This document shows, piece after piece, positions 3,001 to 27,000 of a stretch of DNA of 29,368 nt (its first letter is position 1; each line of letters starts with the position of its first letter). The DNA is from an uncultured bacterium (GTDB lineage Bacteria; Planctomycetota; Phycisphaerae; Phycisphaerales; SM1A02). Position numbers and translations under genes: made by a program. Under the pieces are notes generated by a model. That model worked only from the letters and a program-made list of their open reading frames with translations, was not told the origin of the DNA and ran no database searches. Location of the stretch: contig CAIXEV010000627.1 of NCBI GenBank assembly GCA_903918555.1, positions 1 through 29,368 on the forward strand, given 5' to 3'.

Positions 3001-6000
3001 GTCGGCCGACAGCGTCACGCTTTCTGCCTCGGACAAGTCCATCATCAATGCACAGGCGGGGGCGTCGTCGCTCGCCGCCTCCCTCGGGGGCACGGCCGGC
3101 GTTGCGGTGTCCGTCGGCATTTCGCTCGCCAGGAACACCATCACCAGCGCCGTCGAGGCCTACATCAAGAACGCCGACGGCACGGCGGCCAGCGCGACCG
3201 ACAATGGCGTCACTGCGACCGCCGGCGGTATCAGCCTGTCGGCCAGCGAAGCTGCCACGATCAACGCGACCTCGTCCGCGGCCTCGCTCGCAGCAGGCAT
3301 CGGCGGCACTGCTGGTATCGCCGTCAGCGGCGCGGGCGCCGACGCTGCCAACGTCATCCTCACCCGGACCAACGCCTATGCGCAGGGGAGCACGCTCTCC
3401 AGCACGGGCAATGTCGCCCTCGGCGCCACCAACACTGCCACGATCGACGCAAAGGTCGTCAGCGCGGCCTTCTCCGCGGCCCTCGGCGGCACCGCCGGCG
3501 TGGGTGCCTCGATCGGCGTGGCGCTGGCGCGCAACTTCATCGGCAAGCAGCTGAACGGCACCAGCGCGCCGGCCGAGGTGCAGGCCTACCTTGCCGATAC
3601 CAGCGTCAGCGCCGGGGGCAGCCTTGCGCTGACGGCAACCTCCAACCAGACCATCAGCACGAAGGTCCTGGCCGGCTCGGTGGCCCTGGCCGGCGGCGGC
3701 ACCTTCGGCGGCGCACTCGCCGGCGCAGGTGCCAGCGCGACCAACGACATCGCAGTCAAGGTAAAGGCTTACATCGACGGCGATGGCGCGAGCGGCATCT
3801 CCGCCACCGGCATCACCCTGACGGCACGGGATACCTCCTCGATCAGCGCGACCGTCGGTGCCGCCTCGATCGCCGCCTCGGTCGGGGGAACGGCCGGCAT
3901 TTCGGCCGCCGTTGGCGTCGCGCTCGCGCGCAACACCATCGCCAACCAGGTGGAGGCGGTGATCAGGAACGCCGACACCGGCGTGACCGCCACGGCCGGG
4001 GCGATCGTGCTGGATGCCGACCAGGTGGCCACGATCACCGCCTCGTCCGGCGCGGCAGCGCTCGGCGCCGCGGTCGGCGGGGTCGCGGGCATCGCCATCA
4101 GCGGTGCCGGCGCGGAGGCGACCAACGTTATCCTCAACAAGGTCAACGCGCACGTCGATGCGAGTCGGCTGACCGCATCCGGTGCGGTGACCCTGACCGC
4201 GGACGATGCCTCGACCATCCTCGCGCAGGTAATCGCCGCCTCGGCCTCGATCTCGGTTGGCGGCACGGCCGGCATCGGAGCGTCGATCGGCGTCGCACTG
4301 GCGCGCAACCTGATTGGCAGGCAACTCGACGGCACCAGCGCCCCGGCCGAAGTACAGGCCTATCTCGTCGACAGTAGCGTCAGCGCCGGTGGCGTTCTCG
4401 CGCTGACGGCAACCTCCAACCAGAACATCAGCACGACCGTGCTGGCCGGCTCGGTGGCCCTGGCCGGCGGCGGCACCTTCGGCGGCGCACTCGCCGGCGC
4501 AGGTGCCAGCGCGACCAACGACATCGCGGTCAAGGTAAAGGCTTACATCGACGGCGATGGCGCGAGCGGCATCTCCGCCAGCGGCATCACCCTGACCGCA
4601 CGGGATACCTCCTCGATCAGCGCGACTGTCGGTGCCGCCTCGATCGCCGCCTCGGTCGGGGGCGTGGCCGGCATTTCCGCGGCGGTCGGCGTCGCGCTCG
4701 CGCGCAACACCATCGCCAACCAGGTGGAGGCGGCGATCAAGAACGCCGACACCGGCGTGACCGCCACGGCTGGGGCGATCGTGCTGGATGCCGACCAGGT
4801 GGCCACGATCACCGCCTCGTCCGGCGCGGCCGCGCTCGGCGCCGCGGTCGGCGGGGTCGTGGGCGGCATCGCCATCAGCGGTGCCGGCGCAGAGGCGACC
4901 AACGTCATCCTCAACCAGGTCAACGCGCATGTCGATGCGAGCCGGCTGACCACATCCGGCGCGGTGACCCTGACCGCGGACGATGCTTCGACCATCCTGG
5001 CGCAGGTGATCGCCGCCTCGGCCTCGATCGCGGTTGGCGCTACGGCCGGCATTGGTGCCTCGATCGGTGCTTCGCGCTCGCGCAACCTGATCGGCTGGAA
5101 GCTGGACGGCACCAGGCAGGAGGCGCAGGTCCAGGCCTACGTCCTCGATTCCAGCATCGCGGCGGGCGGCGACCTGCAGATGAAGGCGACGGCGCGCGAA
5201 ACCATCAACGCCAACGTGCTCACCGGCTCGGTGGCGGTCGCCGGCGGCACCGTGGGCGTCGCGGCGAGCGGCGCGGGCTCGGAGACCGAGAACCGGATCG
5301 CCACGCTGGTGAAGGCCTTTATCGATGGCGATGGCGCGACCGGCATCAGCGCGCGCGACATCACGCTGACGGCCGACGATCTCTCCACGATCGGGGCGAG
5401 CGCCGGCTCGGCGTCCGTCGCAGCCGGGTTCGGCGCCGCGGGCGTTGCGGTATCGGTCGGACTCGGGCTTGCGCGCAACGAGATCAGCAACGTCGTCGAT
5501 GCATACATCCGGAATGCCGACGGCGCGCCGGGCAACGCGAATGACGGCGTGGTCACGCATTCCGAGGGCAGCATCCGCATCGAGGCGATCAACGCCGCGA
5601 CCATCACGACGACTGCCTTGGCAGCGAGCGCAGCGGTGGGCGGCGGCCTGGTGGGCGTCGGCTTCAGCGGCGCGGGTGCCGATGCGAGGAATTCGATCCT
5701 CACCAAGACCCGCGCCTACGTCGAGGACAGCGACCTGGTCGCGGACGACGGCGACACGACCCGGACCGAGCGGGTGACGATTTCGGCGCGAGACACCTCC
5801 ACCATCACGGCGCAGGTCCTCGGCCTGTCGGCGGCGGTGGGCGGCGGCCTGGTCGGGGGCGCGGTCTCCATCGGTTCCTCGACGGCCCGCAATTTCATCG
5901 GCTGGACCCTTGCCGGGACCGAGTCCCCGGCCGAGGTACTCGCTTTCGCGAAGAACGCGCGTATCGCCGCCGCAGACGCGCTCAGCATCAGCGCGACCGA

Positions 6001-9000
6001 GAGTGCCACGATCAGCGCGAAGGTGGATGCCGCTTCGGTGGCGCTGGCTGGTGGCGCGGTCGCGATCGCCGCCAGCGGGGCGGGCGCCGATGTGCAGAAC
6101 AAAGTCTCGACGAAGGTACAGGCCTATGTCGACGGCTCGCGCGGCGCCGGTGTGGTTGCCGGCACCGGTGGCCTCACCATCAGTGCGCAGGACACCTCCA
6201 CGATCACCGCGCAGGCCTTCGCCGCGTCGGTCTCCGGGTCGGTCGGGCTCGTCGGCGGCTCGGCGGCCATCGGCGTCGCGCTGACGAGCAACAGCATCGG
6301 CAACGACGTGCGGGCCTTCGTGCGTTCCGCGACGGTGAGCACTACTGGCAACATGACCGTGCAGGCCATCGAGTCGGCCTCGATCACGGCCGTGTCGCAG
6401 GCAGCCGCCGTGTCGGCCTCCGCCGGACTGAGCGTCTCGCTGTCGGGCGGCGGCGCTTCCGCCTCGGCGAACGTGACCACCGCCACCCGCGCCTTCGTCG
6501 AATCGAGCACGGTCACGGTGACCGGGGATCTCGTCATCAACGCGCAGGTCGTCGCCACCGCGGTGGCGCGGGTCGATGCGACCGCGGCCTCGTTCGGGCT
6601 CATTTCGGCGGCCGCCGCAGGATCGGTGGTGTCCGCGACGGTCAACCCGACCGTGGAGGCGCGGCTGTCTGGCTCAACGGTGAGCGCGCGCGACGTGACG
6701 GTCAGCGCGAGCGCGCAGCCCAAGGCCGATGTGCAGGCGAGCGGTTTCGCCGTCAGCAGCGGAGTCTCGGTCGGCGTTTCCAGAGCGGACGTCACGCTGG
6801 CCCCTGTTGTCACCGCCACCGCCGGCGGCACGATGACCGCGAACAGCCTGAGCGTTTCCGCCAGGCATCTGCTGCCTGCGAGCGGAAAGTCCGCGAACGC
6901 CTATGCCGCGGCCAGCACTGGCGGCTTGCTGATCGGTGTTTCCGCGACGATCGCCCGAGCGTCCAACAGCGCCCAGGTCGTGGCGGCGATCGCCAACAGT
7001 TCGAACCTGAACATCACCGGCAACGTCAGCGTCGCGGCCAGCAACAGCACGCGGCAGGACGCCGAGGCGACCGCGGTTGCGGGCGGTGTGCTTGCAGCAG
7101 GCGTCGCGGATTCGAGGACCACTTCGAACACGTCGAACACCGCCACCCTGGGCACGAACGTGACGTTGACCGCGAGCAGCCTGAGCATCGGCGCCACGGG
7201 GCACGACGCCAACTACGCGACCACCACGGCCGGCAGCGGCGGCGTCGCCGCGGGTGCCTCGGCCAAAGCCGCCACCTCGGGCACAAGCAACACGCTTGCC
7301 TCGATCGGCGCGAGCAGCAACGTCAACCTTTCCCTGCGCGGCACGGGTGAATTGAGCCTGTCGGCCGAGCACACGGCCGCCCTCAACACACTGCAGATCA
7401 CCAGCGCGGGCGGCGTCATCGCAGGCGCGGGCGTGTCCGTGGACAACGAGGTGATCTCGGCGGTGGACGCAACCATCGGCGCGTCCGCCACGGTCCTCGC
7501 TCGCGAAATCGACCTCTCGGCGACGAACAACGTCGACAAGCCGACCTTCGCCGACATCCCCAACCCGAACCCCCTGCTGGGGTTGTTCATCCCCACCGTC
7601 TCGGTACCCAACGTGAAGGGCTCGACCGGCGGTCTCGCGAGCGGTGCGGGCATCTCGAGTGATTTCCGCATCACCCTCAATACCAACGTCACCGTGGGCG
7701 CATCGGCCAACGTCCAGACGGTCGGTGTGATCACCGACGATACCCTGATCAGGATGCGGGCGTTCAACAGTATCGTCGCGCAGGACAAGGTGTCGTTCCT
7801 GTCCGGCGGCGCTGTCGCAGGCGCCAGCGCCGACGCGAAAATCCGCACGCTCGCCGATGTCGCGCGCGTCACGATCGGCGATGGCGTGACGCTGCTCAGC
7901 AAGGGCGCGCTCGAGCTCTCGGCGCGCGGCACGGGCAACGTGGTGCAGAAGATCAGCGTCGATGTGTTCGGCGCGGGCACGCTGGTCAAAGGCGAGTCCC
8001 GCATCGACATCAATCCGCTCAATGAGGTGACGATCGGAAGCGCCGCGATCACCGCCTACGGCGACCTCAAGATCTCCGCGGGGCGCGACACCGACTTCAA
8101 CTCCGACCGCTACAGGCTTGAGGCGCGCTACGACGGACTCGCGGGCAGCCTCGTGCCCATCGACAGCGTCGACGGCAAGGCGTTCCTGATCCAGGAGAAC
8201 CGGATCAACATTGGAACCGGCGCCCACCTGAGGACCGCCGGCCAGGCGAAGCTGCACGCCGAGCGCGACAGCATCAACGACCTGACGGCGAAGGCGAAGA
8301 TCACGAGTTGGACGAGCGCGATCGGCGACGGGCTGCTGGCGCTCACCGGCGGCGGCGCCGACCAGTACAACGGTCACCTGTTGCAGGAGGCGCATGGCAC
8401 GGTAACCAACAACGGCACGGTCGAGACAGGCATTACGCGCCGTGTGATGCTCTCCCTCAACTCCTGGAATGCCCAGGCCGGCACCGTGACCGGCACGCCG
8501 AGCGACGGCGTCACCTTCACCACCTCCCAGGAGATCCAGAACAGCACGCTCGGCACCGATCTGGCGAACGCGAAGGATCTGCTCGCCAAGTACGGTTCGA
8601 TCGACGCCAAGCTGCAGGCGTACTACTCGAGCGAAGTGACCCGTATTCAGCAGGAGATGTTGGCCAAGAAGCTCGGGTTCTTCCAGAGCGACGGCGTCAC
8701 CTTCACGCCGGTCACGAGCTATGTGATGACCGTGACGGTGGATCCGATCCGGGCGCAAGCCGGGCGCATCGATGTGCGTGGCGACCAGCTGGTGGGCGAA
8801 AGCAACGGCCGCTGGATCGCGCCGACCGACGCGAGCGTGACGATCACCAACAACACGCCGGCGTTCCTGAACCTGAAGGGCATCACGATCCCCGACGAGG
8901 TCGGCCGCCTGTTCTTCAACGGCGGGCTGGTTGGCACCAATGCCGCGATCAAGGCGGAGAATCAGCGGAACGTCGACGACGACAATTCGCGTTCTTCCGC

Positions 9001-12000
9001 CTACGCGGATACCACCGCGCAGACGCCCGTGATCCCGACCTTCGGTCTGCTGCCCACCGATGCCACGAGCGGATTCGCCGAGCCGACCATTACGGTGACG
9101 AACGCGCTTGACGTGGATGACGTCACCGACGGCAATACCTACGTCCAGCCCAACATCACGGTGCTCGGCCCCAGCCGCGGCGGGGTCGGAATCAGCAACC
9201 TGAGCGGCAACGTGATCATCAATTTCGGCGGCGGGGCCTTCGTCGCCCAAGGGGCCGTGACGGCGAAGAACCTGATCGTCACCGGCACCGGGAACGTCTA
9301 TATCGACGGCGTGGCGCAATTCGCGCTGGGGGAGCCCTCGTCGGTCTGGGGCGGAGTGACCTACGGCACCACGGGTGGCGTCACCGCGAGCGGGGTTATC
9401 AACGCCAACGTCAACCCCGCAAACGTGGCCAACCTGCTCGCCCAGGGGCCGACCGCGACGGGCAGCATGATCGCGCGGCAGATATTCATCCGCGCCAACA
9501 TCATCAACGTCAACGGCCTTATCCAGAGCGGCAAGGACGCCTACGAGCTCAACCTGGACGCCAACGCCGCCAACGAGGTGCGCACGAAACTCAATCAGGG
9601 TTTCGGCGGCACCTTCAAGCTCGACCAGACGTCGGCCGCGACCGGCGGCGACTTCAACGTCTGGTTCAACACCGCGACGCAGAGCTTCGAGGTGCGGGAC
9701 GTGACGGTCGCCGGCGGCAGCGTGACGCTCGAGGGCAAGATCGTCAACACCGGCAACGGCAAGATTCGCGTTCTGTCCGGATACGGCCAGATCAAGGTCC
9801 TCAATACCACCGCCTACGGGGTGGAAGTCAGGAAGCTCGACGCTGCGCAGCGGGGCCAAGGCACGCTGGTGATCATCGACAAGGCCAAGCCTTCGGGGGG
9901 TAATCCGCACACCGCCACTACTTACCAGCGGAACGGTGTCGTCGGGAACGAAACCTACGCGCCGTCTGCCGACATGCGCTATGGCTGGGCGGTGTCCTGG
10001 GGCACGCGGACCGTGGAGAAGATTCACCGCGAGAGCAGCAATTGGCTTGGCCTCGTCAACCTCGGTTCCTTTGACGAAACCGGCAAGACGGTAGAGAACA
10101 TCGCCGCGCCGGCGCTGGAGGGTGGCGCGGGCTACTACTACAGCGAGACGAACTCGTCGTTGCAGAACGCCACCTACAACTACAGCCAGGCCACGTTCCA
10201 GACGAATAGCACCGACCCCGAGGCACAGTGGCGGGAGGTCAGGCACGAGGTCCGATCCTCCTGGTACGGCAAGAAGACCTACATCACCGACTACCAGAAG
10301 CGGGTCGACAACAAGACCGTCGCGCGTCACGACATCAGTGCGCACCGCAACATCGCGATCGAGTTCTTCGGCGGCGCCGAAGCGAGCGTCGTCGTCTCCT
10401 CCACCAGCAGCCGCGATGTGGTGATCGGCAGCATTCTCAATACGAGCGGTACGACCACTGTCTCGTCGGGCGGCGCTATCCGCATGGCCGGCGCGGATGG
10501 CGCGATCGGCGGCCGTCGCGTCGTGCTTACGGCCCTTGCAGGCATCGGCACGGACCAGCGCGCGGTCACCACCAACGTCACCGATTCCTCCACGTCGAGC
10601 CTGTACGCGGTCACCACGAACGGAAACGTGAACATCGTCGAGCGTTCGGACGACCTCGCGATCGACCAGGTCAAGGCAACCGCCGGCGGCAACGTCAGCA
10701 TCGTCGTGCCGGAGAACCTGCTCGTTGCCGCGACCTACGAGGGCCTGGTACAGGGCAGCCGCATCAACATCGACACCTCGGGCGGCGCCACCAGCCAGGG
10801 CGGCGGCGTGGGCAACAGCACAACCGCGCCGCTGGTGGTCGAGTCGGGCAACCAGTTGAAGGACACGGTGACCGTGAACGCGAACGGCAACGTGTTCCTC
10901 AAGGAGAAAACGGGCAACCTCCATCTCAAGCAGATCGACGCTGGCGGTGGCACGGTGTGGGTGAACGTTGCCGCGGGCGGCCTGATCGATGCCAACAACT
11001 CCCAGACGGTGGACGAGCGCATTCGCTCCGAGCTGGAGGGTGGCCTGTGGAGCGAACTCGGCCTGACCGAGAACACCGGTGCCAACCAGAAGGTGCTGGA
11101 TGCGATTGCCGGCTTCAAGACGACGAAGGAAACGGAGTACCGCACCTACTGGAAGTACCGCGGCCAGCAGGCCAACCCGGCGGTCTACGACGAAACCTTC
11201 AATGTCAACCTGAGCGCCGACGACGAGGCCTACTATCGCGACGTGCTCGGTTACGACAGCCCGGCGATCACCACGCTCAAGAACAAGCTCACGCAGGAGT
11301 ACGGCGATCTGCACACGCGGTACGGCAGCTACGGCAACAGCTTCAACGCGGCGTTCTCGTACACCCTGACATCGGCTGAAGACACCGCCTTGCGCGGCAG
11401 CATCAGGATCTGGACCGCGGAAGAACTGCTGTTCTCGATGAGCGGCGGCGTGCTCAAGGCGACGGCGGACACGGTGTCGGTCCTCGAGGATCCGAACATC
11501 AAGGGCACGGACGTCACGATCATCACCAGCCAGGGCATCGGTAACACGACCGGCAAGGTGGTGATCGACATCGCGACCGTGCAGGCGAGCGGCCTGACCT
11601 CGGAAGAGCGGATTGCCTTCTCCGCTGCGGACCGACCGGACATCACCTACATCGTCGGCAATATCGTGGGCAGCAGCGCTTCGCCGGTGAGGTTCAACTT
11701 CACGCAGGGGGCGTCCGACACCATTACCCGGCTCGACGGCGGGAATTTCATCACCGACGGCTTCTCGGTCGGGCGCAAGGTCTACGTCGAAGGCATCTCG
11801 CTCAATGCCACGGCGAAGGGCGTGTTCTACGAGGTGGCGTCGGTCACCGCGAGCACGATCACTTTGACGACCGGCGTGCGGCTGGTGGCCACCGAAGCCT
11901 CGATGGTTGCCGTTCTCTCCCCGGTGATCGCCGATCCCACCGGCCAGTTTGCGAGCGTCCTGAAGATCGGCATCGACCAGCGCGACGACGTTAATCTCAA

Positions 12001-15000
12001 GGCCTCCGGCAATGTCAATGTCACGGCAGGTACGAACATCTATCTGGGTACGCTTGACGGCTTCAAGGTTCAGGCCGTCACCGCCGCCGACGCTGTGCGC
12101 ATCAAGGCGAAGGACGACATCGTCAACGCGGCGTCCTCGGGCGCCAACATCACCTCGAGCGACCTGATTCTGGAGTCCGGTCAGGGTGGCATCGGGACTT
12201 CGGCGAAGAGTTTCAGCGTCCTGCTTTCCTCCTCGGGAGGCCTGCAAGGCACCCTCACCGCGCGGGCGCTGAAAGACGTCTATATCAGCAGCGCCGTTAC
12301 GCTGAAGATCGCGGGCGTGCAGTCGCAGAACGCGGGCGTCTACCTCACGGCGGGCGGTTCGATCGTCGACGGGCTCTCCAGCGACGCGCCCAAGCTCGCC
12401 GGGAGCGTGATCTCGCTGTCGGCCGCCGTGGACATCGGCGCGTCGGCGAACTGGCTGGAGACCGACCTCACCGCGACCGGCACGCTCACCGCCACTGCCG
12501 GCGGCAGCATCTGGCTGCGCGAAGTGGCCAACAACATGAACGTCGACCGGATCACCTCGACCGGCGGCGACGTGAACCTGCGCGCCCACCAGTCGATCGT
12601 CGACGCGTCCACGGCCACCGGTGAGCCGGCGAGCAAGCCGGGCATCGATGTCAAGGCGAAGGCGAACATCAACCTCGCGTCGGACTTCGGGGCGATCGGT
12701 ATCTCCGGCAACGATCTCGACATCGACAGCGACACGAGCGCCACCGACGGTGTCACCGGCACGCTGACGATCAGCAGCTTCCTCGGCGCGAACCTCATCG
12801 AGGTGGCGGGCGACCTCGCCGTCGACACGATCACCGCCGGGGCGGGCTACACCGCCTTCATCGCGGCCCCGGACGGCCGCATCCTGAACGGCCGCGCCTC
12901 GGGCAGCAACGTGGTGTCGGGCAAGGCATTCCTGTTCGCGAAGAACGACATCGGGACCTCCGCCAAGGCCTTCCTCACGCAGGTGGGGAACCTCGAAGGC
13001 CAGTCGACGCTGGGCAGCGCCTACATCACCAACACCGGCGCGATGACCGTCGGCGGCGTCACCGCCAGTGCGGTCGGCATGAACGTCAAGGGCGCGGTGA
13101 CCCTCACCACCCTGAGTCCGATCGCGGTGGTCTCCAGCATCCGGTCCGAGGGCGACATCACGCTCACGGCTACCGATGCCGCCGGCGACGGCGACACGCT
13201 GGACGTCGGCTACGACGGCTCGGGCAACCCGGTGTCGGGGGTCGAGATCGAATCGACCGGCGGGCGCGTGCTGCTGGTCTCCGGCGACCGCTTCCGGCTG
13301 GGCGCCAGCGCACTGCTGCGCGCGGGCACGGTCGAGATCCGCACCGACGACAGCGCGACGAGCGGGCTCGATGGCGGCGGTTCGATCGCGATCTACGGCA
13401 CGATCGACGCTGCCGAGACGATCCTCGCCGGCGGTGCAGACAACGACGTGTTCATGATCACGGTGTCGGCGACCCGCGCGGGCAGCACGACCTTCGTGCG
13501 CGGCGGGCTTGGCGCGGATCTCATCCACGTCGGCAGCAATGCCACGCCCACCACCAATACCGGCGGCACGGTGAACGGCATCGCGCAGCGGTTGGCCATC
13601 GATGGCGAGGGCGGCAGCGACGTGGTGATCGTCGACGAGACCGGCGAAACGGTGGCGACCAGCCTCGTCTCCGACCGCGAGACCCTCGGCGGCGCGCCGT
13701 ATGGCCGCCTGACCGGGCTCGCCGCGGGCAACATCCTCTACCGCAGCGCGGAGATAATCGACGTCAACCTCGGCGCGGGCGACGACACGGCCCAGATCAA
13801 GGCGACCGAGTCCGGCACGACGATGACGCTGCGCACCGGCACGGGCAACGATACCGTGACCGCCGGCAGCACGACCGCGGATGCGACGAGCACGGTGAAC
13901 GACCTGTCCGGCGCGCTGGTGGTCGATGCACAGGGCGGCGCCGCCGATGTGCTGCGCATCAACGACTCTGGGGATGCCGCCGCCAACACCGGCACCCTGA
14001 CGGCCACCACCCTCACCGGGCTGGGTACGGCGGGCATCACCTACACGAACGTCGAGACGCTCAACCTCGACCTGGGCGGCGGTGGTGACGCGTTCACGAT
14101 CGCGAGCACCCACGCCAACCGCACCAATCTCAGATCGCAGGGTGGCGTCGACGGCATCCTCGTGCAGACCGTGGCCGGGCGGACCACGATCGACACCGGG
14201 CTCGCCGCCGACCTGATCACCGTGGGCGATGCGACCCACGACCTCGCCGGCATCGTCGGGCAACTCGACATCGCCGGCGGCGGCCAGACGGGCGACACGC
14301 TCAACGTGGACGCCCGGGTCGCGACCAGCGCGCTGACCGGCCGCACTTACACCGTGGGCCTTGTCGCCGGAACAGCCGGCGTGTCCGGTCTCGGCATGAC
14401 GATCGGCCTCAACTACACCGGCATCGACGCGTTCAACCTCACCCTGGGCAAGGGTGGGGATAACCTGTTCGTCGAGGGCACGAACACCGCGACGCACGTC
14501 ATCGACGCCTACCTCGGCGACGACGTGATCAATATCGGCTCGATCTCCGGCGTCACCCGGGTCTACGGCGATCGGATCACCGACGCGAGCGGTGCGACCG
14601 AGAAGGGCTTCGGCGGCAAGGACAGGATCCGCGTCAACTACGGACAGGACGGCAGGCAGACCTTCGCCAACGGGGTGGCGGCGCTGCTTACGGTCGGCGG
14701 TGGTGAGGACGACGATCTGATCGAGATCGGCCTGTCGGGCAAGCTGTCGAATCCGACCACGACGCCGCCGCAGTCGCGCATCAAAGTCGAGAGCGCGTCG
14801 GCGTACCCGACCGACCCCGGTTCTGACCGCCTGAATGTCTACGGAACGAACGACAGCGACCTGTTCCTGTTCCGGCCGGGCGCGATCATCGCGCTGCAGA
14901 CCGATGCGAATGGCGACCGCGTCGCCGGTGGCGGAGTCGAGCGCATCGACTACGCGACGGTGAGCGGCGGCATCACGGTATTCGGCCGCGACGGCGACGA

Positions 15001-18000
15001 CACGTTCGCGATGGATTCCACCAGTTCGGCGCTGACGGTCTACGGCGATGCGGGGGCGGATCGCTTCCAGGTGGGCCAGATCTTCAAGTCGCCGCGCGAC
15101 GCCGACGCGGGGCTCGTGGGCGAAGACCGGTTCGCGACCACGCTCACGACGCGCGGCTACCTGAGCGACGGGGTCAACTTCGACGCCTTCCTCTATGGCG
15201 GCGCGGGCAACGACACCTTCACCATCTACCGCAACAAGGCGAACGTCTTCCTGTACGGCGAGGAGGACGACGATACCTTCACCGTGCGCGCCTTCGTGGC
15301 GGTGGACCCGAACGACCCGCTCAAGCCGATCACCAATATCAACGGCGGCAAGGGCAAGGATCTCATCACCTACACGGTGAACGCACCGGTGAACATCGAC
15401 GGCGGCGACGGGTCCGACACCCTGATCGTCGTCGGCACCGAGTTCGCGGACAAGATCGTGGTCACCGACGCCGGCGTCTATGGCGCCGGGCTGTTCGTCA
15501 CCTACACCTCGCTCGAGAACATCGTCGTCGATGGACTGGAGGGTAACGACCAGTTCTTCATCGCCAGCACGCCGGCGGGCGCGACGGTCAGCACGATCGG
15601 CGGCAAGGGCAGCGACACGTTCAACGTGGCGGGCAACGTCACCGCCGAGCCGATCGACGTGGTGAGCAACGACCTGCTCGGCCACAGCGGGATCATCGAC
15701 CTCGCCATCCCCTCGGCCAACACGACCGATGCCGGGTACCAGAACCGCTTCATCGGGGATATCTCGGCGAGCGTGATGGACAACGAGTCGGCCGGCATCG
15801 CGCTCACCATGCTGGGCGGGGTGCTGCGCGTGTTCGAGGGCAACAGCAGCAGCACGCTGACGCGCAGCCGCTATTCGGTGGTGCTCACCCGCGCGCCCCA
15901 GGAAGACGTGCGCGTGACGGCCTCGCCGGCGACGATCCGACAGGCCGATGCGCTGGCCGGTGGCAAGGGCATCGCACTCAACGGCAGCGAGGCCGGTACC
16001 ACGCTGCGGTTCGACCGTACCAACTGGTTCATCCCGCAGATCATCGAGGTGACGGCGCCGGCCGACACGCTCGCCGAAGGCCGCCGGGCCATCAACATCC
16101 AGCACACGGTGGTGCAGGGGGCGGACCTCGGCGATGGCGGCGAATACGATTCGCTCGCGCTGCCGTCGCCGGTGGTCGAGGTATTCGACGACGACGCGGC
16201 GGGCGTGGTGATCACACCCGCCTCGAACGGGCAGGTGATCGTCAACCAGGACAGTTCGGTCAGCGTCGGCAGCGACGCCAACGCCTACTACGTATCGCTG
16301 GCGCGGCAGCCCACGGGCGACGTGGAGATCAACCTTGCCGTTCAGCCCGACGACAACGGCGTCGCCCAGGTCTACACCGACGCCCAGGTCTACCCCGCCG
16401 GCGTCTACGCAGGCATCCCCCATCTCAGCTTCAACACCACCAACTGGGCGACCCCGCAAACGGTGAAGGTGACGGCGAAGCCCGACCCGACGGGGGTACT
16501 GCAGGGCACGCAGTTCGTGCGTATCCAGCACAGCGTGGCTGCGGAGAGCGTCAACAACTTCTACGGGCTGAGCCTCGATGACGTGGCGCGCGGTCTTGCT
16601 GCAAAGGTGGCCGGCGACCTGACCGGGCAGTACACCGCGACGGCGACCGGGACCACCGTCACGATCACCGGCAAGGCGGCTTTCACTGCCACGAGTCCCG
16701 ACAGCAGGGTCACCGTCGTGGGCGCCGAGTCCGCGTACAGCGTGGCCCATATCACGCCGGCGGGGGCGGTGGCCGCAGGCGACCGCTACACGCTGTCGGT
16801 AAACGGCCGCCAGTCGGTCTATGTCGCCGGGGCCAACGGGGATGAGCTCACGCTCGCAGCCGTCGCGCAGGGCATCAAGGCCGCGTACGACGCCAGTGCG
16901 CTCGCCGGGGTGACCGCAAGCATTGCCAGCGCCGGTACGGTCACGTTCACCGGCCAGACGAGCGTCATCCCGGCCTTCACTGCCCGTTTGGTCCAGTCGA
17001 ATGCGTCGACGGCGACGGTGACCGGTACGACAGTTGACGGCCGCTTCGGCAAGGTCACCGTCACCGTAGCCGAAGAGGTGAAAAAAGACGAACTCTGGAC
17101 GCTGAAGCTCGGCGACTCGACCTACCGCTACGTAGCCGGGAAGAACGGCGAGATGACGGCGCTGCCGTCGATCGATGTCACGCTGACCGACAAGGATTCC
17201 GCCGGCGTGCTGGTCACCCAGTCGGGTGGAGACACCCGGGTGATCGAGCCGACGGATCTCGTGCTGCTGGGCGCAGCCGAGGTGACCGGAACGGCGACTC
17301 CGGGACAGGGTCTGAGCATCGCCAGCGCGGACGCGGTGCGGCTCGAAGTCTTGATTGCCGAGGCGCCGACCGCGACGTCGGTGTCGTCCGGGCGAGCGAC
17401 CGTCAGTGGCACCCAGGTGTGGACGCAGGCCGACATCACGCTATCCGGCACGGTGGTCGCCGGAAACACGTGGAGCGTCCGGATCGAGGGCCGCAACTAC
17501 GCCTATGTCGCCAAGGATACCGACACCACTCTGGCGCACATCGCGACCGGGCTGATGACCGTACTCACCGCCCCCACCACCGCCCCCACCCCCGGCCTCG
17601 GCGGCAGCTACGCAGTGAGCCTGCCCGAGGGTTCGAGCGGTGTGGTGGCGGTGTCGAAGGCCACTGGCTTCACCGTGCAGGTGCTGAGCGGCAACGGCGC
17701 GCTCACCGGCACCAGCGCCTGGCGCAATCCGGTCATCGCGCTGAGCGGTACCCCGGGCAACTCGGAAACCTGGACTGTTCGTGTCAACGGCACGAACTAC
17801 AGTTACGCCACCCCCGCGACCGGCGCCGTGACACTGTCGATGGTGGCCGACGGCATCAAGACCGCGCTGACCTCCGGCGGTACGCCCGCGTTCGCGTCCG
17901 CAGCGGTCACCAAGGTTGCCCTGACCCAGTTCATCGCCAACTTCGGTGCGTCGGAAATCAACGAGGCCGCCGGCCGCAAAGACTCGATCTTCACCGCGCA

Positions 18001-21000
18001 GTCCCTCGAAGTCGACGTCTGGAACCGCCAGCCCAACGCCAACATCCTCAACGCCGATACCCGACCGCATGTCACGGTTCGCGGCACCGGCGACGGCACC
18101 ACGGACGTCTACAAGTTCGTCGTTACCAACGAGATGCTCGCAACGGGGTCGGTGACGGCCACCTTCGATATCGACAAGGGCCTGGACTACTTCGACAGCA
18201 TCTTCTGGGCAAGCCAGCTCAACCTCTACAACAGCAGCGGGGCGCTGATCGCAAGGGGGCTTGGCTACTCCAACCCGTCAGACCCATCGAAAGGCGCGGG
18301 CGGCAGCACCACCTGGCTCGATGACTTCCTGACCTACACCTTCACGACTGCGGGCACCTACTTCGTCGAGATCACGAACTGGATTCCGCTGGGTACCAAC
18401 TCGAACGGCATCCCCAAGGGCGCCGACTACGAGCTGCAGGTCTCGATCGATCGGCACAAGACGGCCGAGTTCGTGCTCGAGGCGGCGCCAGTGCTCAAGC
18501 AGGGCGACACCGTCCAGAACGTCGACGCGGCGGGCAACTGGTACACCTTCCTCGATCCGACCATCGGCAACGGCACCGACATCGGCTCCAGCACGCCTTA
18601 CGTGAAGATCAGCGCGCTGGGCGACGACACCGTCGACCGATACTCGTTCGTGGTGTCCGCGGCCAATCTGTCGCAGGCGGGAGGCACCTCGGGCACCACC
18701 GTCGGCGAGACGCCCGCCCGCACGTACTACACCAGCGCCGATGTGCAGCTGACCGGACGGGTCAAGGCGGGCGATGTCTGGACGGTCAGGCTGAGCGGCC
18801 TGGATTACACCTATACCGTCAGCGCCGCCGACGTCACGGCGGAGACCGGCGCGTCCGGTGCGGGCCTGGCGAACATCGCGAGCGGACTCGCGGCAAAGAT
18901 CACTGCCCGCACGACAACCAATACCGACGGTGTGGCCGACATCACGCAAGGCGCGACGTACAGCGCGGCGGTGTCGGCCGACCCGAAGACCCTCCGCATC
19001 ACCGATCCGAACGGCTTCTGGTTCGCACTCGACCATCAGATCGACGACGCGGCCGTGGTGCTGCGCGAGGGCGCGGTGCAGGGCAATTCGACGCTGCCGC
19101 TGACCCGCGCCGATGTCGTGTTCTCGGGCACGGTTACCGTTGGCGACGTCTGGACGGTCACGCTCAACGGCACCCCGTACGTCTACACGACGACCACCGC
19201 GAGCCTGGACGATGTGGCGGCGGGTCTGGATACCGCCATCGGTACCGTCGCCGGGGTGTCGGTCGCCGCGAGTGGCAGCACGCTCGGCTTCACCGCGACC
19301 GGCAGCAACAGCTTCACGCTCGCCGTGAAGGAGAGCGGCCAGACCGCCGACGGCGTCGCGAAGTTCACCAATGTCGCCACCCGCGCTGCCTACCAGCAGG
19401 CCGATGTCGCGCTGAGCGGCACCGTGACGGCGGGCAATACCTGGACGCTCAGCCTGCGCGACCAGGCGGACATCGCGACCGACTACACATTCACCGCGAC
19501 CACGACGAGCCTCGCCGATGTTGCGGCGGGCCTGGTGAGCACGTTGAACACGACCAAGCCGGGAACGGCGACCTACGCCGCCACGCAGTACGGCCAGGTG
19601 GTACGCATCACGGATGCCGGGACCGGCAAGTTCTTCACGGCGTCGATCGCAAGTTCCGGCACGGGTAGCGGCACGGTGAACGGGATCGCCGTGCAGACCG
19701 CCGCCCAGGATGTCAAGTGGACGAACGCAGCGCTTGCACTCACCGGCACCTTCAGGGCGGGCGATACGTACGCGGTCACGGTCAACGCGGGCACCGCTTC
19801 CGCCTATACCGCGACCTACGTGGCGGGGGCGGCGGGCACCGCCGGTACCACCGGCACGACGACCACCTACGCCGCGACGCTCGAAGGCGTGGCGCTGGCG
19901 CTGCGCGACGCGATCAACAACATGGCGCCCGCCGGCAAGACCTACGCGGCGACGGCAAGCGGCACCACGCTGACGATCGCTGATCCGGCTGGCGTCACGT
20001 TGACCTATGGGGTCACCGGCGCAGCCTCGGCCGGCACCCTGGCCAGCGCGAACGCGTGGACGAAGTCGCTCGCGTTCGCCAACCCGGTGGCGGGTGACGC
20101 GGGCAGAACCTACACGGTCGCCGTCGACAACGTCTATTTCAACGCAACCGCGGACGCCACGCCGACGGCGGCGGAAATCCTCGCCGCGTTGAGCACGGCG
20201 ATCAACGCGAACGCCAGCTACGCCGCCACCTACGACACCGACGCGACACGCGGGTCAGGCGTGCTCACGATCGCGAAGAAGGACCGGTCGGCGATCGTCG
20301 CGCGGCTCGAGCAGGGAAGCGTGTCCACGCCCTCGGCGGCGGTCGCGGACGCGGCGAAGGTAGTGACCATCGGCACCCCGACGGCCGACCAGGTGCACAC
20401 GCTGATCCTGAAGGAAACGTCGAGCGGCACGGTACGCGCGTTCACCTACCACGCCGATGCTTCGCCGACGGCGGCCGAAGTGGCGACAGGCCTGGCGGCG
20501 GCGGTGAACGCCGGCTCGGCGACCCACAAGTTCGCCGTGTCTCGCAGCGCGGACGTTGCCGATACGCTGCTGATCACCAACACCGATGGCCTCGCGTTCA
20601 CGGCGGATACCACCCGAGGGAGTACAAGCGTGGTGTCGGGGACCTCCGCGTACACCTACCGTCTGTCCGGTACTGTGACCGCCGGCGAGGTGTACTCGGT
20701 GACGCTGGTGCCGGCGAGCGGCAGCGCGAGCGTGTTCGCGTTCGAGGCCGCGACCACGGCCATCGACGACGTGCTCGCAGGCCTTGCCGCAGCGGTCAAC
20801 ACGGCGGGGAGCGGCTACACCGCGACCGCCCGCACCGCAAGCGACACGCTGACGATCGTCAACAATGCCGGTGCCACCTTCAGCGTCAGCACGACCCGCG
20901 GCACGGCCGCCGCCGACGCGGGCGCGGCGAGCGCAAGGCTCTCCGGTGCGGTGAGCATTGGCGACGTGTTCACCGTCGCGCTGAAGCGCGGCGCGTCGAC

Positions 21001-24000
21001 GGAGTACTACTCCTATGCCGCGACGACCACGTCGATCGACGATGTCCTGACCGGTCTGAAGACCACGATCGGCACGACGAACTACGCGGTGACCGCCGAC
21101 GCCACCAGCGGCACGCTGACCGTGGTGCGCAACAGCGCCGGCGCGCTGACGATGAGCGTGGACCGCGGCACGGCGAAGGATATCTCGTCGTGGGCTGCCT
21201 CGATTTCGGTGGGCGGCACCGGCATCGCGGATGGCGATACGGTGACCGTACGCGTGGCCTACGGGTCCGGTCCGACGACCAAGGACTACGCCGTGACGGT
21301 GAGCGGGATTACTGTCGACATGACGGACGTACAACGGCAGCAGACCGTCGCCGGACTCATCGCCACTGCGATCAATACCGACTCCCCGGCACTCTTCTAC
21401 GCCGATGTCGAATCCGGCAGCGCGGTGGTGAACGTCTTCAGCGCGGCCAAGGTCGACGCGACCACGGCGATCGTGTCTGTGACGAAGCAGGCTGGCGCCG
21501 CATCGATCACCCTCGCGCCGGTGACGAACGCCACTCAGTCGGTGCAGGTGACCGGCACCGCCGCAGCGGGCAAGGTCTGGACCATCGGCCTGCCGAACCC
21601 GACCGCTGGCACGGACTACTACAGCTTCGCCGCTACCACCGCGAACCTCGCGGACGTGGTCACCGGCCTGGTCGCGGCGATCAATGCCAGCACCGTCACC
21701 TCGGGCTTCTCGGCGGTGGATTCGTCGCATAACGGAGCGACCGTGCCGTCGCTCACGATCACCCGGAGCAGCGCGATCGCGTTCACGGCCTCGGTGGCGA
21801 ACCCGGCGGCGAGCCTGGCGGATTCGTCGGGCTGGACCGAGACGCTGAAGCTTTCCGGGACGGTCGCGACGAACACCGCCTGGGTCCTGTCGGCGAAGAG
21901 CGGCACGACCTACGCGACGTTCGGTTACGCGGCGACGAGTTCCGACACCACGCTCGCAAGCGTGGCGTCCGGGCTCGCCGGCGCCGTCACGGGGGCGAAC
22001 TACCGCGCGCTGGACACCGGCAACGACACGGTCACGCTGTTCCGGATCGACAGAGCGACGACCACCGTATCGACGACAGCACCGGTCGCGACGCTGGTCG
22101 ACGCCGCCGCCTGGACCGAAACCCTCCGGCTGGCCGGCACGCCGACCGAGGGCATGGTCTACGCGGTGGGCACCAAGGACGCCGTCCCCACGCCAGCGTA
22201 CGAAACATACAGCGTGGTCGCGGGTTCGACCCCCGACCTGGCGACCCTCACGACAGCGCTGGCGACTGCGCTGGATGCCTCCGCAACCTACGATGCGATC
22301 GCGACCGGCAACAACACCATCACGATCCTGCGCGGCGCTGACACGAACGCCTTCAGCGCGCTGACCACGCTCGGGGCGAACCCGTCCGATGCAGCCGCCT
22401 GGTCCAAGGCGGTGCAGGTCTCGGGCACCGTGGCCACCGGCAAGATCTACACCGTCGCGCTGACGACGGCATCCGGAGCGCCGACCTACTTCAACTACAC
22501 CGCGAGCGCGACCGACACGCTGGACTCCGTGACGACTGCGCTGTCCGGGCTGATCGACGCCAGCAGCGGTTACGCCACCCTGGTCACCGGCGCCTCCGGC
22601 AGCAAGGTGATCCACGTGCTGCAGCAAGGCGGCATCACCGGCATCACGTCGTCGACCAGCCTCGCTGCCCCGGCCACGGACGCCGCCGCCTACGCCGAGA
22701 CCGTCGAGGTCGGCGACACGGTCGGCGGCACGGTGGTGGCGCGTGAGACCTGGAACATCACCCTCACGCCATCGAGTGGCTCGCCCGTCACCTTCAGCTA
22801 CGTGGCCGGGTCCGGAGCGGATATCGCGGACGCGCAGACCGTCGCCCAGCGCCTCGCCGCGCAGATCCATGCGAACGTTTCGTACAACGCCACCGCCTTC
22901 CAGACCGCCGCCGGCACCTGGGTGGTGGCGATCAGCGCGCAGGGCGGGACGGGCGGATTCACTGCGACCCAGAGCGTGTCGGCAGCCGCGCCTCTGGTAC
23001 GACCGACCCTTGGCGGCGAGGCGAAGGTCGCGTGGACGCAGCAGGTCACGCTTGCCGATGGCGCCGGCTTAGATGACGTCTGGACGGTGCGCCTCGATGG
23101 CACCAGCGGCCTCAGCAACTATCAGCTCACCGGCAGCACCGACACCAGCGCGACGGCCGCCGCGGCGCTCGCCGGCTCGACCGGTTACGTGGACCTGGGT
23201 ACCACCGGCAACGTCGCGAAGTTCCGGCAGGTCAACTCGAACTTCGTCACGATCGGGCAACGCACCTGGATCGATCGCCTGGCGCCGACCGCGACGACCG
23301 CCCCCGCTGCAGACAGCGTCGCCGCGTCGGCACGGCTCACCGAGTACAACTTCACGCTCGCCGGCAAGGTCAGTGTCGGCGATGTCTGGGCCATCAAGCT
23401 CAACGGTATCGAGTACAAGTACACCGCCGCCGCAGGCAACAACCTCAACGCCGTCTCGATCGGACTGCGCGCGGCCATCAACGCCGGCGGGCTGTTCACG
23501 GCCGCGGGCAGCGGTGCGGACATCAAGGTCACCATCAAGCCAGGTGCCTGGTTCACCGGCTTCACGCAGAACCTGTCCCAGGGCGGCGGCAAGGTCAGGG
23601 CAGTGCTGGATATCGACCGCACCCGCGTCATGCAGGGGGTCCAGACCTTCCTGCAGACGAACTATGTCCCGGTGTACTACTTTGGGTTCTTTGGTGGGTA
23701 TCAAGTCGTCACCACCGCCGTCAACGTCAGCTACATCGACACGCCGGTCGTGACGCTGAGGGACGCGTCTGGCAATGTCGTCTTGCCGGTGAGCACGAAC
23801 GCAGGCGCGACCACGCCGGATGCGGGCAGTACCCTGCTTACCGACCCGCTGCAGACCTACGAACTGTCCGCCGCTGGCACCTACACGGTCGAGGTCATGG
23901 CCTCCCGTCAGTATCTTCAGGCGAATCCCTTCGCGAGCAACGGACTGGTGGGTATCGCCAGCGGGCAGCCGTACGCCCTCAACGTGTCGCTCCAGCGCCA

Positions 24001-27000
24001 TGCGGTCAACGAGGATGCGATCAACCTCGTCGGCAAGCAGGTGACGCTGACCACCGGCACCAACCGCGGCACCACCGCGCGCATCCTCGCCTACGACGCA
24101 CCGAGCAAGACCTACACGCTTGACCGGGATACGACCGTCGGCAGCGGCAACCGCTTCGACATCCAGTACGACATCACCTCGGAGTACCCGGCCTACGCGG
24201 CGAGTTCCGACACCTTCCAGGTCGTGCTGACCCGGGCGCCGACCGCGAATGTCACGCTCGACGTGACGCCGCAGGTTACCGCGACCTACAACTCAGACCT
24301 GGCCTTCTCGGCACGTGACAACTACGGCCAGACCGAGGGCATCCAGGTTGACACGGCCACCCCGCAGGCGAAGATCGAACTGACCGGAACCCCGGTCGCG
24401 GATCAGGTCTGGCGCCTCGCGCTGGGCGGCGTGAACTACGACTACACCGCATCGGCTGCGCCGACGCTGGCGAGCGTGGCCACCGGCCTGAAGGGCGTGA
24501 TCGACGCCGCCAACGCGGGCTATACCGTCACCGTCGCCAGCGGCACGCTCACCGTGAGCCGCTACGCGGGCGATGGCGCCGCGTTCACCGCGCTGCTGTC
24601 GATCCTGCCGTACTCCGAGGGCAGCGTCGCGATCACGCAGCTCGCCGCGACGCCCTGGAAGGCGGCGCTCGCGTTTGCCGGTCCGGTGCGGCAGGGCGAG
24701 GAGTGGAAGGTCAGGCTCAACGACGTCGACTACGCCTATACCGTGCAGTATGGCGACGACCTGGGCGCGGTAACGCTAGGGCTGTTCGAGCAGCTCAAGG
24801 CAGTGACGAGCCTGCGTGTCTCGCTCACCGGCCTGGAACTCACCGTCGCCACTGCCGATCGCACGACGCTGCTCGCCGCCAGCTACACGATCAAGGCCGC
24901 CGGGACGCCCGCGGTGGTGCTGCCTGCGGCGACCGCCGGCGCGACCGTGACCTCCCAGCTCGTCTTCTCGAGCGACGCGTTGCACGGGAACGGTTGGAAC
25001 AAGCAGCAGACGGTCACGGTCACCGCGCGTGACGATCGCATCCTCGAGGGGCACGACCTCAAGGTATTCCCGGCGATGGGCGAGCGGATCAACACCATCC
25101 GCGGTCCGCTGTTCATCGACGGCGGTGCGCAGTACTCGGATGCGAACGCCCTGAACGAGCCGTTCATGACGGCGGGCGAGACCAACCTGGTCCGGCCGAA
25201 CAGCACGATCGCCGCCTTCGGCACCACGACAGCGACGATCAACGGGCAGGCGACCACGGTAGCGACGCTGACCGATACGCGGATCACGCACGTCGATGCG
25301 GCGCGCGGCGAGATGCCGGGTCTCGATCCGCGCATGAACGATTACGCGTACCAGATCACGGTGATCAATTCGCCGGGCGTGGGCACGCCGATGGATCTGC
25401 TGCTGGGTGGTCTGAAGGGCGACACGCTGGCGGTGAAGGCCGAGGATGGCACCAGCACGCTGCAGGTGGTGTCGTTCAACGGCCCGGCGGGTGCCTCGGT
25501 CTCGGTGAAGGGCCGCGGCGACGCCGGCACGCTGTACTCGAAGGCGGATATCGTCCTCAAGGGCGACGTGTTCAAGGACAGCGTCTGGGAACTCAATGTC
25601 GGCGGCACTGCGTTCTCGTACACCGCGGGCAGCCGGCCGGGGGGCGCGACGGCGGACGACGCGCTCACGCTCGATATCGTCGCGCTGCGCCTGGGCAACG
25701 AGATCGCGGCGGCGGGGTTCACGGTCGTGCGCACCGGCTTCCTGCTCGAGATCAGCCGCGCAGCGTCCTTTGCCGCGAGCTTCACGCCGGGCAAGGGCAA
25801 CGCGACGATCCTCGGGACCCCGGCCAGCGACACCGGCGTCAGCTGGGCGGTGGCCGAGGTGAAGTTCGCGATGACCCAGCCGATCACGGCCGGCCAGGTC
25901 TGGAGCGTCACCCTGCTCAAGTCGGGCGGTGCCGAAACGAACCAGACCTACACCTACACGGCGCGTACCGGCGACGACCTGACGGCGGTCATCCTGGGCC
26001 TTGCCGACCAGATCGACATCAGCTCGCGTTACCACTCGGACATCAAGTACGAAACCGCCACGTTCACCACGAACTGGCCGGCGAGTCCCGCGGTGGCCAA
26101 CGGGCTGGGCTACTACATCACCCCGCTCAACCGCAACTTCCTGGCGGTCGAGGCGGACCAGGTCGACGTGCTCAATCTTTTCAACCGCGCGAGCGTCTCG
26201 GACGACGCGGGCGTGCTGACCGACTCGCGCCTCACCGGCTTTGGGATGGGCGGCGACACGGTGGTCGCCGGCAAGGCGGTTAAGGGTGGCATCAGCTACC
26301 AGGGGCTCGAGCAGCTGAACCTGATGCTGGGGTCCGGCAACGACCGGCTGACCGTCGAGTCGACGCATCTGGGCTCGACCACGATCACCAGCGCCGGCGG
26401 CAACGACACCATCACGATCAAGACGGTTGCCGGCCACACCTTCGTGGATACGGGCGCAGGCAGCGACGTGGTGAACGTCGGCAGCGACCTGAACGTGGTC
26501 GACCAGATTACCGGCTTGCTGGTGATCAGCCAGGGCGGCGACGGTGCCGGCGATGTGCTCAACGTGGTCGATTCCGGCGATGAGAACGCCAATACGGCGA
26601 CCCTGACCCAGAGCACGCTGACCGGTCTGGACATGCCCACGGTCGCGGAGGTCCAGACCATCCGGGTGCAGGCGAAGGAGGGCACGTTCCGCCTCGGCCT
26701 CGCGCCTGAACTGTATGTACCTGGCGCGCCGTACGGCGAGGCACAGACCATCACCTACGACAAGTCCGGTAGCGGCGCCGGCGTGTCTGACATCCAGACG
26801 AAGCTGCGCGTCCTGTATGGCACTTCCGACCTGATCGTGACCGAGGTCGGCCGCGAAATCGCGGCGGGAGAGACCGACGCGCGAGCGATCACCTACGCCC
26901 TTACCTTCACCGGTGCGAAGGCCGGCGTCGACATGCCGAAGGTCGTGTGGGCGGAGGCGCGCGCCGCGATCGACGTGTCGGCGCAGAAGCCACTCACCAA

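Follow-up and report, generated by a model that had tools for sequence, protein, structure and literature searches.

The locus described here raises the question of whether a giant protein can be organised not as a row of consecutive domains but as domains inserted into the loops of other domains, layer within layer. The stretch of DNA analysed (29,368 nt, in the following 'the window') is contig CAIXEV010000627.1 of an uncultured planctomycete (Phycisphaerales, SM1A02), i.e. one entire contig of a metagenome-assembled genome (MAG; GCA_903918555.1) comprising 731 contigs. It is occupied by a single stop-free frame (frame 2, plus strand) of 9,789 codons that is open on both sides: the contig's own ends fall inside the gene, and both gene ends are absent from it. 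A search of the other contigs of the MAG for a continuation of the gene found none that carries it. Residues are numbered as aa = (nt-2)/3+1. An initial annotation of the window had suggested that an RTX-like unit is interrupted by one very long insert containing further split domains, nested up to four levels deep. We find that each level passes an independent test (profiles, splices or two-chain prediction), and that the window very probably encodes a portion of a giant, secreted beta-roll protein that binds calcium and has split domains nested in four layers. Spliced halves were judged by local profile scoring and two-chain complementation, while structures were predicted with AlphaFold2 (AF2) on the unaltered sequence and aligned with VIA.

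The outermost layer is a spine of repeated modules, for which we built an iterated profile of 119 positions. The motif of the normal unit is found at aa 4500–4547 (nt 13499–13642). In one copy GGKGSDTFNVAG ends at aa 5211 (nt 15634), RINTIRGPLFIDGG lies at aa 8362–8375 (from nt 25085) and QVDVLNL at aa 8720 (nt 26160); all quoted motifs were thus found where they had been placed, and the gap of 9,450 nt between the first two corresponds to exactly 3,150 aa. The module is broken twice, in the order S1, insert 1 (3,150 aa), S2, insert 2 (339 aa), S3, and a canonical module (aa 4583–4674) has 12 and 2 residues at the two sites of interruption. S1 is well conserved (mean column identity of 75% in 11 homologues). 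Spliced together, S2 and S3 give one alignment over profile positions 74–118 with 22.5 bits, compared to at most 11.2 bits for 2,000 random pairs of segments taken from inside insert 1. In an AF2 model of aa 8003–9200 (model 1; 11-row alignment, mean predicted local distance difference test (pLDDT) score of 70), the RTX beta-rolls of serralysin-type proteases and of CyaA align over 153–167 residues (Z 10.4–10.8) within the model range 354/358 to 1157, which corresponds to S2, S3 and the following module as a single roll from which inserts 2 and 3 loop out. The fold and the GGxGxD-like turns are similar to those proteins, but each rung has more than nine residues, and together the rungs form a super-repeat of ~119 aa; between aa 4400 and 9500 none of the spine modules matches the Pfam family of RTX nonapeptides (PF00353).

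Within insert 1, the second layer is formed by three Calx-like domains (C1, C2 and C3), which we compared with a profile of 150 positions (alignment A2). C1 is intact: in an AF2 model of aa 5130–6240 (model 2; 11-row alignment, mean pLDDT 64) it superposes on the first calcium-binding domain (CBD1) of NCX1 and CALX (structures 2dpk and 3e9t), with 108–115 of ~115–124 residues aligned. The pair C1–C2 superposes on the tandem CBD12 of the same proteins, in which, unlike here, the second domain is continuous. C2, whose interruption the initial annotation had not noticed, is separated from its last strand by 192 aa; as the CBD12 structures align on model residues 133 to 601–606, across this insert, C2 closes over it. 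The C2 insert is itself circularly permuted, consisting of the helix half of a repeat, one full repeat and the strand half, an order kept in most of 10 homologues, and in homologue P0007 it is a single permuted copy of 95 aa.

For C3 a split had been proposed, which we can confirm, although the domain lies in three pieces rather than two. Spliced in native order, C3a, C3b and C3c yield one alignment of 62.4 bits, on a par with C2a (61 bits), whereas 1,000 random ordered triplets do not exceed 9.7 bits, and the three pieces in any non-native order give three separate fragments; the three-part division follows from the fact that only the native-order splice joins into one alignment. The site between C3b and C3c holds 0 to 3 repeats in homologues, e.g. 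a single copy in P0008. In two homologues with 0 copies (L022 and L032) C3b and C3c are contiguous and covered by one profile alignment over positions 33–115 or 9–114; judged by these sequences, they are natural insert-free forms of the site.

The first gap of C3 encloses the third layer, two PPC-like domains. From the intact first domain (PPC1) of 11 proteins we derived a profile of 186 positions. Structural matches of PPC1 in model 2 are the collagen-binding domains of the collagenases ColG and ColH, the C-terminal domain of Tk-SP and the N-terminal domain of DeCLIC. The jelly roll superposes on ColG (1nqj) with Z 8.2, 89 of 96 residues and a root-mean-square deviation (rmsd) of 2.6 Å, on ColH (3jqw) with Z 7.9 and on Tk-SP (3afg) with Z 8.1 (89–99 residues at 2.5–2.7 Å for the three); these Z scores are modest, given that the tool states a background of 7–8. 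Compared to the collagenase domains, the domain is longer (~185 aa), and its second copy (PPC2) is split after the first third in every member examined. PPC2a and PPC2b match complementary parts of the PPC1 profile and give, when spliced, one alignment of 59–72 bits, while PPC2a joined to 286 random segments reaches at most 28.4 bits, in line with the split of this domain that had been postulated. An intact PPC1 followed by a PPC2 in two complementary pieces, with the break at profile position ~73–76, occurs in 11 of 11 large homologues and in ~50 genome loci; in P0003, for instance, the pieces cover positions 11–73 and 74–181. Two PPC-like domains, both of them unsplit, are present in a distant relative in Alteromonas (L053). 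The PPC2 insert is flanked by NLSQAGG (nt 18665–18685) and NLSQGGG (nt 23570–23590), with 15 of 21 bases matching. As a general junction signature or insertion scar, NLSQxGG can probably be dismissed, a comparable pair being present in none of ten homologues.

The innermost layer consists of tandem repeats of ~92 aa (profile of 92 positions) inside PPC2, and the count of 16 given previously holds if one diverged copy is added to the 15 profile hits. The repeat has four strands, a helix and three strands, and aligns best with the insertion domains found in sheath and nozzle proteins of phages (Z 10–12.7, rmsd 2.1–2.4 Å, ~90 residues), such as those of cyanophage A-1(L) (8kee), PhiTE (9cba) and T7 gp12 (8e4g), which are likewise guests inside another fold. 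In contrast to these, the repeats form arrays of 1 to ~20 copies and are permuted at one site, and identity is just 9–23%. Flagellin outer domains are a weaker structural match, and no Pfam family covers the repeat. We also considered a rule of even copy numbers, i.e. obligatory out-and-back hairpin pairs. It is ruled out, since repeat numbers vary freely at each site: by profile hits, homologues have 0–2, 1–3 or 9–15 copies per site, odd numbers included (0, 1 or 2 at the site before PPC1). Because single and permuted copies occur in loops, and because the fold is that of phage insertion domains, the repeat domain may have adjacent N and C termini, so that any copy number would fit in a loop.

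Table 1. Elements of the nested region and of the spine downstream of it, in order along the window
Element	Nucleotides	Residues (aa)	Strand	Evidence or remark
S1, N-terminal half of split spine module, ends in GGKGSDTFNVAG	15497–15634	5166–5211	+	module-profile positions 3–48, 46 bits
Linker opening insert 1, with strand-like PIDVVSND motif	15635–15751	5212–5250	+	low pLDDT in AF2 model
C1, intact Calx-beta-like Ig domain	15752–16195	5251–5398	+	VIA Z 9.6 to NCX1 and CALX CBD1
C2a, Calx-like domain 2 minus last strand	16196–16573	5399–5524	+	profile positions 4–124, 61 bits
C2 insert: C-half repeat, full repeat, N-half repeat	16574–17149	5525–5716	+	repeat-profile coordinates 35–78, 1–91, 3–...; pLDDT 80–90
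C2b, last strand of Calx-like domain 2	17150–17197	5717–5732	+	splicing extends alignment to profile end
C3a, first piece of Calx-like domain 3	17198–17257	5724–5752 (profile piece)	+	positions 3–28, 20 bits; in all homologues
Two ~92-aa repeat copies before PPC1	17402–17926	5801–5975	+	repeat-profile hits 5807–5906, 5907–6001
PPC1, intact PPC-like jelly-roll domain	17927–18481	5976–6160	+	VIA Z ~8–9.3 to collagenase collagen-binding domains and others
PPC2a, N-terminal third of second PPC-like domain	18482–18688	6161–6229	+	PPC1-profile positions 22–76, 23 bits
16 diverged ~92-aa repeats, innermost layer	18728–23608	6243–7869	+	15 profile hits and one diverged copy (aa 7069–7176)
PPC2b, rest of second PPC-like domain	23609–24013	7870–8004	+	PPC1-profile positions 99–183, 43 bits
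X, small conserved beta domain	24014–24184	8005–8061	+	33–48% identity in nine homologues; four strands in AF2 model
C3b, second piece of Calx-like domain 3	24185–24295	8062–8098	+	profile positions 36–60, 20 bits
Two repeats between C3b and C3c	24362–24925	8121–8308	+	repeat-profile hits of 69 and 52 bits
C3c, third piece of Calx-like domain 3	24935–25084	8312–8361	+	profile positions 91–114, 20 bits
S2, single rung of split spine module	25085–25129	8362–8376	+	module-profile positions 74–88
Insert 2: conserved ~120-aa beta domain and two repeats	25130–26146	8377–8715	+	looped out of beta-roll alignment
S3, final part of split module, starts near QVDVLNL	26147–26251	8716–8750	+	module-profile positions 91–118
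Insert 3: two ~100-aa domains in next module's loop	26633–27442	8878–9147	+	between canonical module 8762–8877 and module 9148–9342
FlgD_ig domain in same module loop as insert 1	27578–27886	9193–9295	+	Pfam PF13860, E 5.5e-21

The arrangement is not peculiar to the window. All elements occur in the same order in ten giant homologues (35–48% identical, 5,549–7,912 aa), and a scan with one genome per species revealed 59 loci in species-representative genomes. The nearest relatives (68–72% identity) belong to the Pseudomonadota (Rhodocyclales/Sulfuritalea); further loci are labelled Verrucomicrobiota, Planctomycetota, Elusimicrobia, Methylomirabilota, Rokubacteria, Actinomycetota, Desulfobacterales, Spirochaetota and Acidobacteriota. 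In 45 of the 59 loci everything from S1 through C3c–S2 is present in order, with 1,884–3,641 aa in insert 1, 682–2,118 aa in the PPC2 insert and 115–656 aa in insert 2. Experiments are possible because one carrier, Pseudaquabacterium inlustre DXS22W, is available in culture.

This spread bears on two rival explanations. The MAG is fragmented and the gene runs off both ends of its contig, as would be expected if a chimeric contig had joined pieces of repetitive genes and the architecture were an artefact of assembly. However, the repeats are only ~30% identical at the protein level and the window contains no long-period tandem repeat at the DNA level that could be mis-joined, its GC content is even throughout (0.64–0.71), and identical junctions recur in independent assemblies, including contigs of 0.6–6.9 Mb. 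Since order and junctions are conserved in many genomes, the chance of an assembly error is so slight that we treat it as excluded, and we consider the nesting to be old and maintained. Alternatively, the protein could be a string of beads with degenerate remnants, in which the halves have decayed or are independent and never reassemble, and the resemblance to Calx and PPC domains is a relic or due to chance. It fits this view that Pfam recognises none of these domains and that single pieces score only 6–43 bits. But the pieces match non-overlapping, ordered parts of their profiles and join only in native order, random splices of this protein scoring far lower; ~50 genomes of many phyla share the break positions, homologues with contiguous C3b and C3c exist, and tandem CBD12 aligns across the C2 insert. 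We therefore regard the beads-on-a-string explanation as largely refuted and very improbable.

The domain labels deserve a comment in this context. Searching the protein in ten pieces of 1,000 aa, Pfam recognises only a FlgD_ig domain (aa 9208–9286) and RTX nonapeptides from aa 9594 onwards (aa 9594–9624 and further stretches, E 2.7e-08). Pfam Calx-beta (PF03160) does not match C1 at E up to 10 and matches two of 16 members of the alignment (E 0.0012), the best match of Pfam PPC (PF04151) is not significant (E 0.3, in one of 11 orthologues), and a profile search of PDB sequences gave no family for the Calx-like, PPC-like or spine domains. The terms 'Calx-like', 'PPC-like' and 'RTX-like' of the initial annotation accordingly stand at the level of fold, from AF2 models with VIA alignment, and not as Pfam assignments.

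Further inserts, which had escaped notice before, interrupt the spine downstream of insert 1 (Table 1). The most informative one is the FlgD_ig domain, a full-length match to PF13860 (profile positions 1–79 of 79). Its host module (aa 9148–9342) is interrupted between positions 50 and 73, and the module profile aligns across the insert (positions 2–118, 78–81 bits). The insert is absent from six of ten homologues (P0003, P0004, P0007, P0008, P0009 and P0010), which makes this module loop a proven insertion site in the family. The length range of insert 2 given above was observed in 40 genomes, in many of which its repeats are absent. An all-beta domain of ~120 aa (nt 25130–25501, aa 8377–8500) always lies between S2 and S3, even in repeat-free homologues. 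In insert 3, the second domain (nt 27068–27433, aa 9023–9144) resembles a domain of a tail-tip protein of mycobacteriophage Bxb1 (Z 10.1, 27% identity, rmsd 2.5 Å).

The step at which S1 would have to meet S2 and S3 over the whole of insert 1 was addressed by two-chain prediction of aa 5040–5225 with aa 8350–8890, using an orthologue alignment for each chain. The interface score (ipSAE) was 0.60 (runs 0.61, 0.55 and 0.60), compared to 0.00 in all three controls, and the predicted contacts link aa 5186–5213 (last rung of S1) and 5215–5222 (linker) with aa 8354–8376 (S2) and 8720–8728 (first strand of S3), i.e. they lie where nesting predicts them. Several points speak against the nested reading as a whole. 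The verdict of the tool is just 'weak support': in its calibration 58 of 80 solved complexes and two of 110 mismatches pass the mark, and values up to 0.60 include only seven of the 80 solved complexes together with both passing mismatches. The controls are not beta-rolls, so non-specific end-to-end stacking of solenoids is a possible source of the score. In the single-chain model S2 has a pLDDT of ~30, and the pairing of halves in the AF2 models was judged solely from alignment ranges. C3 lacks a detectable counterpart of the final 36 profile positions (its last strands); we looked for the missing strand in aa 5212–5230, in aa 5240–5261, in S2 and after insert 2, but a strand-level profile is powerless here, giving 1–3 bits for the true last strand of C2 with a background of up to 10.5. 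Finally, homologues lacking inserts, a comparison proposed in the initial annotation, exist in part: sub-inserts vary in repeat number or are absent in some members, but no homologue was found in which insert 1 or the PPC2 insert is missing altogether, and the ancestral unsplit states would have to be deduced from paralogues only.

Some of these points would suit an arrangement in which the inner nesting (C2, C3, PPC2) is real, but S1 ends one beta-roll and S2/S3 start another, with a multi-domain linker of 3,150 aa between them and no continuous solenoid. Such an arrangement could account for the low pLDDT of S2 modelled without S1, for the 5.9 bits that S2 alone obtains on the module profile, for the verdict and controls of the two-chain test and for the lack of a homologue without insert 1. 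It does not explain why S1 (3–48) and S2+S3 (74–118) match complementary parts of one module profile, why the FlgD_ig-bearing module shows the same split pattern and is uninterrupted in six homologues, why three runs place the predicted interface exactly between the last rung of S1 on one side and S2 with the first strand of S3 on the other, and why 45 genomes have conserved junction sequences. Hence two separate rolls appear unlikely to us, and we favour a single spine module closed across insert 1.

Under this nested reading, of which topology, conservation and classes of fold are borne out by the data, the protein consists of a spine of ~119-residue modules that displays domains by their insertion into module loops, following a 'split domain' principle. 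Insert 1 is a tree of discontinuous domains: C1, then C2 with its permuted repeat insert, then C3 in three pieces, the first gap of which holds two repeats, PPC1, PPC2 and domain X, with PPC2 in turn split by the 16 repeats. Each layer would complete its folding by uniting pieces 200 to 3,150 residues apart, so that the side arm, in shape perhaps long or perhaps a compact cluster, departs from the spine and returns to it at a single loop. Export would proceed through a TolC-type outer-membrane channel, with folding outside the cell in the presence of calcium, and the arm may serve surface binding or display. The whole would be a secreted surface fibre that folds with calcium and presents binding modules.

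In RTX adhesins it is well established that ligand-binding domains project from split domains (PMC12077191, PMC10865825); the RTX beta-roll of AhLap, for instance, is interrupted by a vWFA domain, which is in turn divided by an insert of 9 kDa (PMC12077191). Like AhLap of Aeromonas hydrophila, FrhA of Vibrio cholerae and MpIBP of Marinomonas, the present protein is predicted from its sequence to be giant, calcium-dependent and fibrillar, and it shares with them the C-terminal RTX nonapeptide repeats and the way in which an Ig-like or beta-roll domain is interrupted, the guest buds out and the chain returns to complete the host fold. As split and twice-nested projections from an RTX beta-roll have thus been published, calling this an 'unusual adhesin design', as was done previously, overstates the case; the principle is known, and the present family is a new, much deeper variant of it. 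The insert described here has 3,150 aa and ~28 domains and is about ten times larger than that of AhLap (~250–330 aa), and the nesting is one to two levels deeper than the two of AhLap. Moreover, one host domain is in three pieces and one insert is circularly permuted, Pfam fails to recognise the guests (Calx-like, PPC-like and phage-sheath-type repeat), ~119-aa modules instead of tandem Ig extenders make up the spine, and the export neighbours in orthologues include a SecA-like ATPase. Our literature searches turned up no account of nesting this deep or of the present family.

Since the window lacks both gene ends, the neighbourhood was analysed in a close orthologue from a Burkholderiales MAG (L002), in which the gene is ~45.8 kb long (~15,260 aa) and encodes a protein with DUF4347 towards its N-terminus and RTX repeats (E 5.4e-21) towards its C-terminus. 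A TolC-like OEP gene lies upstream. On the downstream side follow a HlyD-GAF gene, a second HlyD gene that includes an M50-like region, a gene for a SecA-like ATPase of 664 aa and a third HlyD gene; in the 10 kb downstream of the orthologue gene, no ABC transporter turned up. In each of the three genomes analysed, the short SecA paralogue (664–717 aa) adjoins the giant gene and a normal SecA is encoded as well (coordinates: G003 L060:10096–17224 and L061:2695–4044; G001:C1:5901796–5902941; G002:C10:482037–483182). The export genes beside the giant gene may represent an undescribed export system. Six members of the family (L012, L015, L018, L019, L056 and L058) come from MAGs labelled Actinomycetota (Gaiellaceae, Solirubrobacteraceae, Acidimicrobiales), lineages in which TolC-dependent export would be unexpected.

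A more far-reaching interpretation, which we consider conceivable yet doubtful when all its parts are taken together, would see in these proteins an undescribed family of many phyla with perhaps the deepest natural nesting of discontinuous domains. In it, three Calx-like domains would form a closed ring on one rung of the spine, the third being circularly permuted and taking its last strand from aa 5215–5224 or 5251–5261; the PPC-like domain would project a brush of variably 7 to 20 phage-sheath-type domains; and the TolC/HlyD machine would be driven by the SecA-like ATPase instead of an ABC transporter.

Pieces of one domain that lie up to 3,150 residues apart would have to meet once exported, which makes the family well suited, as a natural example, for studying the folding of discontinuous domains, its order and the part that vectorial secretion and calcium play in setting that order. 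It extends the 'split domain' rule of RTX adhesins from single ligand-binding domains to trees of ~28 domains. It also illustrates a problem of annotation: Pfam is nearly blind over ~9,000 residues of the protein, and a parser that expects domains in linear succession would mistake the halves for linkers or for novel domains.

Two observations concern the remainder of the window. Upstream of the beta-roll, aa 1–4400 (nt 2–13200) comprise ~4,400 residues of Gly/Ala/Ser/Thr-rich repeats with zero Pfam matches. On the minus strand, long open reading frames of up to 3,358 aa are present, which look like shadow frames of a GC-rich gene.

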